A stretch of 40,522 bases of DNA from a virus (lineage: Duplodnaviria > Heunggongvirae > Uroviricota > Caudoviricetes), in IMG/VR virus record IMGVR_UViG_2737471847_000003, positions 1 to 40,522 of that record. One strand, 5' to 3'. A program made the position numbers and the translations under genes. The notes below the pieces were generated by a model. The model was not told the DNA's origin and searched no databases. It worked only from the letters and a program-made list of their open reading frames with translations. Positions 576-1,289 of this stretch are shown in pieces (the stretch's first letter is position 1; every line of letters begins with the position of its first letter).

Positions 576-1289
576 ATGGACTTCAACCTGAACAAAAAAA
601 TGCCAGTTAATAGATATCTTGTGATAATAGTTTTTGTCCTTTTAATCTTAGCCTGTATGCAGTTTATTTATCTTTGCCTTCGTTCATTAAGCATTGCCCC
701 AAACTATACGGGGACTGTAAGTGACATTATAATAGCTACAACAAATATTATTTTAGCTACCTACGCCGTTCGTGCATTCAAAAACTTATTTAAAGATAAA
801 CTATCCGATAATGCCATTAGTAAAATAGATACAGCATTGATGTCTCTCGATGATTGCATAGATAGTTTTTCAAGCTTATTTTTAAATATGACACTTATTA
901 AGATTTATAAAAACACTAATAACCCCAAGGACCCTCAGTTAGTTAAACAGCTCGATGAAGCAGCAAAAAACATCGAAAAAGCAACAAGTTCAGCCTACAA
1001 GGCAAGATCTATAATTGGCTCATTAACTCGTTGGAATATAAGCTTAAACACAGAAAAAGGAATAAGACTAAACCAACTTACCGCTGATGTTTTTGAGTTA
1101 GGCATGCAGGCAACAAATATGTATATCGCACTAATAAATGAAATAAACCCTAACTCCCCATACAACTCTTTAACTCATAGACCATTTGATGAGTTATTTA
1201 ACGAATTTAATGAAGAAAAGACCAGAGTTGAAGACGAAAGCAATGAATTAAAAGAGTTCTCTATTCATGAAATATTTAAAATCAAATAA
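576..1289 (+). CDS. Hypothetical membrane-anchored protein (moron cargo between attL and ogr)
   Basis: 237-aa ORF, GAGG RBS 5 nt upstream; hydrophobic N-terminal helix (LVIIVFVLLILACMQFIYLCL) then charged helical region; clearly AT-rich versus phage core by eye. Confidence 0.6.
   Translation: MDFNLNKKMPVNRYLVIIVFVLLILACMQFIYLCLRSLSIAPNYTGTVSDIIIATTNIILATYAVRAFKNLFKDKLSDNAISKIDTALMSLDDCIDSFSSLFLNMTLIKIYKNTNNPKDPQLVKQLDEAAKNIEKATSSAYKARSIIGSLTRWNISLNTEKGIRLNQLTADVFELGMQATNMYIALINEINPNSPYNSLTHRPFDELFNEFNEEKTRVEDESNELKEFSIHEIFKIK

Follow-up and report, generated by a model that had tools for sequence, protein, structure and literature searches.

The cargo of P2 hotspots is rich in antiviral genes, and an int-att hotspot has been described (PMC13586616). 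[quoted passage not shown] At the membrane level, P22 SieA is a small prophage inner-membrane protein that is sufficient alone, blocks DNA injection at the inner membrane and exists in several very divergent types (PMC10883804).

The stretch of DNA analysed here (40,522 nucleotides, hereafter the window) is E. coli chromosome with a ~36.2-kb P2/186-like prophage integrated in ssrA. Between the ssrA-side att junction and the late-gene activator ogr it carries a cargo gene, and this att-ogr slot is part of the 'tail protein to CI' interval that bioRxiv 10.1101/2024.10.15.618418 reports as a hotspot. The kind of element is well known, namely an AT-rich moron in a P2-like hotspot that encodes a small membrane protein. 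The family to which the protein belongs is very narrow and has not been described before, and that it occupies several cargo slots is new to a modest degree.

The prophage in ssrA and its att-ogr cassette

The 47-bp att repeat corresponds to the 3' end of ssrA, and its two copies delimit the prophage junctions (Table 1). Between these copies, P2-type late genes (D, U, T/tape measure etc.) are located on the minus strand, such that the cargo gene on the plus strand indeed lies opposite the tail operon, as the initial annotation had stated. The prophage also encodes a 186-type CI repressor and an integrase (33579-34592), and the same gene layout is annotated in RefSeq genomes with 99-100% identical DNA.

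Table 1. Features at the ssrA-side end of the prophage (window coordinates).
Feature	Position	Strand	Evidence
ssrA (tmRNA), prophage integration target	40..402	+	ARAGORN, tag ANDENYALAA; Rfam RF00023, 295.8 bits
att core, ssrA-side junction	358..404	.	exact 47-bp direct repeat, partner 36586-36632, 36,228 bp apart
Replacement ssrA terminator from phage	411..438	+	12-bp stem followed by T-run; terminator scan; kept in occupied and empty prophages
Probable Int arm-type binding repeat GTGGCGGCAAAATGGCG	450..466	+	last backbone element 5' of cassette; in all three aligned prophages
AT-rich cargo cassette, ~895 bp, 32.8% GC	472..1366	+	three-way occupied/empty alignment; composition
Shine-Dalgarno GAGG	567..570	+	5 nt 5' of ATG; read from sequence
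Cargo gene, 237 aa	576..1289	+	ORF list; RefSeq WP_000347141.1 'hypothetical protein'; homologues; dN/dS
TM helix 1, residues 14-35	615..680	+	Kyte-Doolittle 19-residue maximum 2.98; AF2 helix 13-40
Most conserved segment, loop and probable TM helix 2, residues 42-68	699..779	+	13-homologue alignment; low hydrophobic moment, K/R-rich flanks
Predicted C-terminal four-helix bundle, residues 78-226	807..1253	+	AF2 helices 78-112, 120-148, 160-190, 204-226
G+C-rich hairpin, ogr/late-operon terminator	1367..1387	-	RNA fold; kept in empty site; equivalent terminator annotated in P2
ogr, late-gene activator	1392..1607	-	Pfam Ogr_Delta E = 4.8e-22; RefSeq annotation

To define the cassette, we compared the window in a three-way alignment with E. 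coli TUM12355, whose site is occupied but diverged, and with E. coli EC96, whose site is empty. Backbone conservation extends to position ~471, just past the arm-type repeat, and resumes at the hairpin AAAACCCGCCAGCGGCGGG, which places the cargo cassette in between; in the related prophage of E. coli EC96 the cassette is missing. The ORF has a GC content of 32.2%, compared to 49.7% in the prophage as a whole and 54.7% in its late region. In P2, the Int P-arm site follows only 5 nt after the ogr terminator (24265-24288), so that no P2 gene exists at the att-ogr position. Both the AT-rich nature of the junction and the lack of a P2 gene, as stated initially, are borne out.

The ogr lineage of this prophage was found in 15 of 5,426 complete E. 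coli genomes, eleven of which carry the allele of the window (truncated to 127 aa in one of them, strain TUM1887), while two have a ~60%-identical allele and two an empty site. The flanking backbone is 90-100% identical among the ogr-lineage genomes, and the cassette borders are sharp. Between the window and TUM12355 the backbone is ~94% identical (~6% diverged), whereas the cargo gene shows a dS of ~1.2. This excess over the divergence of the flanks indicates that alleles were swapped as cassettes and did not diverge in place, as seen at defence hotspots. The att-ogr slot of E. coli thus occurs in three states and its content varies among relatives, as is the case for P2-like hotspot cargo. 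Presence/absence polymorphism between conserved backbone elements (Int arm repeat, ogr terminator), a base composition foreign to the prophage, and homologues that occur only in other prophage cargo slots together make the assignment of the ORF as a moron-type cargo gene of a P2/186-like prophage well supported, in agreement with what had been proposed for it.

A copy related to GTGGCGGCAAAATGGCG is present on the other arm (36472-36488), and the corresponding pattern search gave two matches versus 0.15 expected. By analogy to the P2 Int P-arm beside the ogr terminator, the repeat probably represents an Int arm-type site. The repeat and its variants occur on both attP arms and were also seen 3' of the homologue in locus L010 (~6815-6845). 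The empty-site prophage of EC96 harbours a second repeat copy where the window has the cassette, suggesting that cassette insertion may have removed one arm repeat.

Two further observations concern the same prophage. Directly after the distal att copy, a second integrase of the P4/CP4-57 type (36836-38077, plus strand; Arm-DNA-bind_3 and Phage_integrase) points to a second island in tandem at ssrA; in the P0004 loci the two are arranged the other way round, the P2-like remnant being preceded by a CP4-57-like island (RadC, CbeA/CbtA). In the region 8656-10128, a serine DNA invertase (Resolvase and HTH_7, 2e-53) adjoins a tail-fibre C-terminal fragment on the opposite strand and a tail-fibre assembly gene, an arrangement that probably switches the host range by inversion, in the manner of Mu Gin or P1 Cin.

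Coding status, expression signals and predicted architecture

The ORF is a real gene, as the initial annotation had assumed, and it is under purifying selection. It starts with ATG, and homologues with 28-89% identity keep both length and frame. For the less saturated pairs, Nei-Gojobori (NG86) dN/dS values range from 0.12 to 0.22 (L011/L020, 0.12 at a dS of 0.19; L002/L006, 0.17; window/L021, 0.22). Across 13 aligned homologues, down to 33% identity, the length is conserved and 28 residues are invariant; the homologue P0017 (28% identical) was found later and stands outside this alignment. Every homologue has 28-34% GC, whatever its context.

A ribosome binding site of its own, likewise expected beforehand, is present, and the GAGNCTACTATG block with the Shine-Dalgarno is conserved in the TUM12355 allele. 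A sigma-70 promoter scan 5' of the ATG gave no match at threshold; by eye, only a weak CACACA-N17-TATATT (525-553) appears promoter-like. The ~100 nt 5' of the gene are unconserved between the alleles, which share no promoter candidate. The terminator supplied by the phage should insulate the cargo gene from ssrA read-through, and transcription by this route is unlikely. The homologue P0013 (L010) is located downstream of and co-oriented with cI-int, a position that, judging from 186 biology, would fit expression from the lysogenic transcript. At the 3' end, the sole G+C-rich hairpin downstream of the cargo gene is the first backbone element past the cassette. It is convergently shared by the cargo gene and ogr, with a U-tract on the minus strand and only UU following the plus-strand stem. 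The hairpin to which the terminator formerly assigned to the gene would correspond is thus the ogr terminator. A non-coding RNA search of the cassette found none, the tmRNA being the only hit above threshold, and an isrK-like match on the ogr terminator was dismissed (19 bits versus a cut-off of 50).

Of the predicted single N-terminal transmembrane (TM) helix plus long charged helical region, the helix itself (residues 14-35) is strongly hydrophobic, whereas the count is probably two. The helix comprising residues 48-68 is uniformly hydrophobic (mean hydrophobicity 1.38), and its hydrophobic moment of only 0.22 argues against an amphipathic nature. Three to four K/R residues precede TM helix 1, zero to two lie in the 12-residue loop and three to five follow helix 2 in 12 of the 13 aligned homologues, the exception being P0014, which is aligned from a start codon inside TM helix 1 and has no N-terminal segment. 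By the positive-inside rule this pattern fits an N-in/C-in hairpin with a cytoplasmic C-terminal domain, and residues 48-68 thus probably form the second TM helix of such a hairpin. This helix is only marginally hydrophobic in the window allele, and the AlphaFold2 confidence in the TM region is low (pLDDT 53-72). Loop and helix 2 share the motif PN(Y/F)TGTxSDIxIAxxN, in which P42, T45, T47, S49, D50, I51, I53, A54 and N57 are invariant; other invariant residues include K83-I84-D85, R152-W153 and E174.

The long charged region did not hold up in the form of a long coiled coil, since AlphaFold2 (mean pLDDT 77.8; 75-94 over residues 80-237) predicts a compact four-helix bundle instead. This predicted bundle of ~150 residues, or ~70% of the protein, is probably cytoplasmic. 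A BFVD fold search returned two uncharacterised proteins from one uncultured myovirus; as the fold matches are generic or uncharacterised, the predicted fold is uninformative on function. Taken together, the product is with high probability a membrane protein of the prophage cargo type.

Distribution of the family and its neighbouring cargo

The remote homology search proposed along with the initial annotation yielded nothing significant in Pfam, PHROGs, PADLOC or NCBIfam, nor among PDB sequences. In detail, the Pfam scan (E <= 1) yielded only two weak sub-threshold matches and none to SLATT-type 2TM effector families, PHROGs and NCBIfam only sub-threshold noise, and the profile search of PDB sequences only weak coiled-coil noise, e.g. 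syntaxin. In PADLOC-DB 2.0 neither the window protein (E <= 1) nor three distant homologues (E <= 0.1) found a match. No match was obtained by tblastn of three family members against 50,697 deposited phage genomes, nor in 72,556 plasmids. Among 5.8 billion proteins, the single-sequence query found 12 clusters and a word-indexed profile search 16 clusters (90% identity), and a profile search of 1.84 billion cluster representatives (50% identity) found four. IMG/VR holds four family loci, and one of 185,579 species-representative genomes in GTDB carries the gene. The family is confined to Enterobacteriaceae, with E. coli, Citrobacter, Enterobacter and Salmonella as named sources, and all members are annotated as 'hypothetical'. 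One member in a metagenome bin labelled Acinetobacter sp. is suspect and probably mis-binned, because an identical-cluster member comes from Citrobacter freundii.

Every readable homologue context is a prophage cargo slot. The slot between the att site in ssrA and ogr harbours alleles with 88% (L036), 64% (L021-24), 59% (L002) and 53% (L004/L038) identity, and alleles down to 53% fill it in other Enterobacteriaceae. Several of these att-ogr copies lie in heavily decayed prophage remnants with the gene still intact. In L006 the gene directly follows ssrA, with no P2 genes beyond. A second location is the P2-like V-S slot (that of the non-essential orf30 in P2), where the gene stands alone in L011 and L020 and after a 246-aa gene in L012/13. 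In L010 it is preceded by a 402-aa gene, and in L015-19 it is located in a lambdoid prophage, again one integrated in ssrA, at its tail-fibre end and a few kb from an EcoRII R-M system. The lambdoid copy P0017 (L015, ~5880-5925) shares ~40 nt of upstream sequence with the S-V-slot copies (L011, ~3500-3545). In the P2-like loci this block contains TGT-N12-ACA, which we take to be the Ogr-dependent late promoter consensus (pV in this case) and of which L015 has the degenerate form TGA-N12-ACA. The shared degenerate pV block suggests that the lambdoid cassette was captured from a P2-like S-V slot.

Recognised defence-type cargo occurs at equivalent positions. In the window, a 585-aa dCTP-deaminase defence gene (34606-36363, minus strand, 33% GC) occupies the interval from int to the distal att junction (PADLOC dCTPase 2e-146; Pfam dCMP_cyt_deam_1; RefSeq 'anti-phage dCTP deaminase'), i.e. 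in the int-att hotspot position of PMC13586616. In the circular phage, deaminase and membrane gene would flank attP and diverge from it. A two-gene system of TM protein and dCTP deaminase was nevertheless rejected: among complete E. coli genomes the deaminase is present in seven, this allele in eleven and both in only three, which means that they assort independently and do not form a unit, and the S-V-slot family members have no deaminase nearby. In the decayed prophage of TUM12355 (~60% allele; L025, 24151-25706) the cargo of the int-att slot consists of a Dcd-type 'dCTP deaminase domain' protein and ThyX; this nucleotide-metabolism cargo differs from the window deaminase at the equivalent position. 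Another P2-like S-V slot (L032, 3947-4822) contains a TIR-domain protein (CAP12-PCTIR_TIR), confirming that the orf30 slot hosts defence-type cargo. The gpA-gpQ (old/tin) hotspot of the window (23595-26616) encodes a 652-aa GHKL-ATPase protein (PADLOC type II REase models, 9e-91) and beside it, convergently, a C-5 cytosine methyltransferase (Pfam 4.7e-57); both genes have 35-38% GC and probably constitute an R-M-type defence module.

In two loci another cargo gene lies 31-33 bp upstream of the family member. An obligate partner was rejected, since the genes in this upstream position, which encode 402 aa in L010 and 246 aa in L012, show no relationship to one another. Members of the 246-aa family are moreover found on their own in the S-V slot of Enterobacter prophages, and together these findings indicate that our gene behaves as an autonomous single-gene cassette. 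Neither the 402-aa, the 246-aa nor a 374-aa neighbour has a significant match in Pfam, PADLOC or NCBIfam. The 402-aa protein (L010, 4761-5969) shows a weak RES-like stretch (Pfam E = 0.054), and the 246-aa (L012, 1247-1987) and 374-aa (L006, 8276-9400) proteins, by eye only, an R-x4-H motif reminiscent of HEPN. Homology to a 203-aa TM protein beside P0011 was rejected.

Possible functions and comparison with known systems

An anti-phage role of the product is suggested by the recognised defence cargo of the same slots (dCTP deaminase, TIR protein, R-M systems). Such guilt by association carries little weight where one gene is concerned, and the finding that the product resembles no known exclusion, abortive-infection or defence protein in sequence or fold speaks against this role, whose chances we regard as evenly balanced. 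Within it, we tentatively favour a self-contained att-ogr cassette encoding an inner-membrane protein that would act alone to protect the lysogen from other phages. According to this scenario, the cassette was inserted between the attP Int arm site and the ogr terminator, and its product would be made in the lysogen and act by itself at the inner membrane. It would consist of a short basic N-terminus, a TM hairpin and the ~150-residue four-helix bundle, the latter probably in the cytoplasm, and the invariant polar motif (T45, T47, S49, D50, N57) carried by the periplasmic loop and TM helix 2 would serve as the working surface. Expression in the lysogen has two findings against it, the strong phage terminator between ssrA and the gene and the lack of a convincing promoter.

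As a first option for the mode of action, the protein might block entry of the phage genome, i.e. cause superinfection exclusion as P22 SieA does. We give such an entry block less than even chances; with the C-terminal domain in the cytoplasm only ~12 residues would be periplasmic, which leaves little surface to block an ejection conduit. As a second option, abortive infection could occur, in which the bundle would sense infection, the polar TM helices would oligomerise and the membrane would be depolarised. It is also possible, though we say so with reservation, that the protein is the first representative of a so far undescribed family of single-gene anti-phage proteins of the inner membrane, whose cassette would move among at least three P2-like slots and lambdoid prophages and whose mechanism would be unlike that of known exclusion or abortive-infection proteins.

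Taken as an explanation of its own, abortive infection would require an effector whose cytoplasmic bundle senses a phage product and whose TM hairpins (Asp50, mid-membrane Asn57) form a pore, such that the cell dies before release. Polar residues in TM helices typically drive helix oligomerisation, and the invariant polar residues inside the TM helix as well as the predicted cytoplasmic location of ~70% of the protein are in line with such an effector. P2 hotspot cargo includes many systems of this kind (PMC13586616, PMC9122126), and the closely spaced upstream cargo gene in two loci would be compatible with it as well. Those neighbours, however, are mutually unrelated, and the solitary occurrence of the 246-aa neighbour elsewhere implies that no partner is needed; similarity to known 2TM effectors was not detected in the Pfam scan (E <= 1). 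An abortive-infection effector is unlikely, though it is the close rival of an entry block.

Prophage morons include many non-defence fitness genes, and lysogenic conversion unrelated to phages (a change in host physiology such as envelope stress tolerance, immunity to a membrane-acting toxin or tailocin, or colonisation fitness) has in its favour that the gene remains intact in decaying prophage remnants, which suggests a benefit to the host, and that isolates come from human, bird, pig, dog and cattle. Against it stand the great rarity of the gene, which is present in ~13 of the 5,426 complete E. coli genomes and in a single one of the 185,579 species representatives, and its strict linkage to phage cargo slots otherwise holding defence genes; similarity to known immunity or virulence families is lacking. 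We consider this explanation improbable.

The gene could also serve its own phage or act in conflict with satellites (modulation of the phage's DNA entry or lysis timing, damping of ogr by convergent transcription, interference with P4-like satellites), a role that could build on the convergence of the gene on ogr. The shared hairpin is a weak terminator in the plus direction, and read-through would be antisense to ogr; furthermore, P4 satellites parasitise P2-like phages (PMC9122126). Yet S-V-slot and lambdoid members exist without an ogr neighbour, related prophages manage without the gene, and selection on the protein sequence makes an RNA-only role unlikely. This explanation has little probability. 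A decaying or functionless hitch-hiking ORF, for which the missing annotation and family match and the truncated copy of TUM1887 could be cited, is hardly credible given the low dN/dS, the conserved length and 28 residues, and the retention in several unrelated slots.

If the favoured anti-phage reading is correct, a compact single-gene defence at the membrane level would be added to the repertoire of the P2 hotspots. The ogr side of attP would then stand out as a cargo slot in its own right, surveys so far having named the int-att slot or else the wide interval from tail to CI. For mutagenesis, the invariant loop/TM2 motif is a direct target. If the gene has no such function, it is one of many uncharacterised prophage morons.

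Among known proteins, fold similarity was seen to chemoreceptor four-helix-bundle sensors (Tar, Tsr, PcaY; 4HB_MCP) at sequence identities of 5-16%, a match that is generic because de novo designed bundles score equally. A 4HB_MCP sensor domain was rejected, as there is no Pfam match and the placement differs: the chemoreceptor bundle is periplasmic between two TM helices, whereas the bundle of the cargo protein follows both. Homology to P2 Orf30 was also rejected (hhalign probability 0.6%, TM stretch only). The likeness to Orf30 is one of type, since it too is AT-rich, opposite to the late genes, ~260 aa long and equipped with an N-terminal hydrophobic helix, and distant family members fill its S-V slot; to our knowledge, Orf30 has no known function.

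P22 SieA differs in size (162-164 aa), in its three predicted TM helices and in having no four-helix bundle, and no SieA or SieB match above noise was found in Pfam or PHROGs. Both are, the cargo protein by prediction, small prophage inner-membrane proteins without an enzymatic domain that come in divergent types. The Old, Tin and Fun(Z) proteins of P2 are soluble and, in contrast to the cargo protein, are not annotated as membrane proteins; the cargo gene matches no PADLOC model. With old, tin and fun(Z), which exclude other phages, our gene has in common that it is a non-essential, AT-rich, opposite-strand cargo gene at a fixed slot (PMC9122126; PMC13586616).
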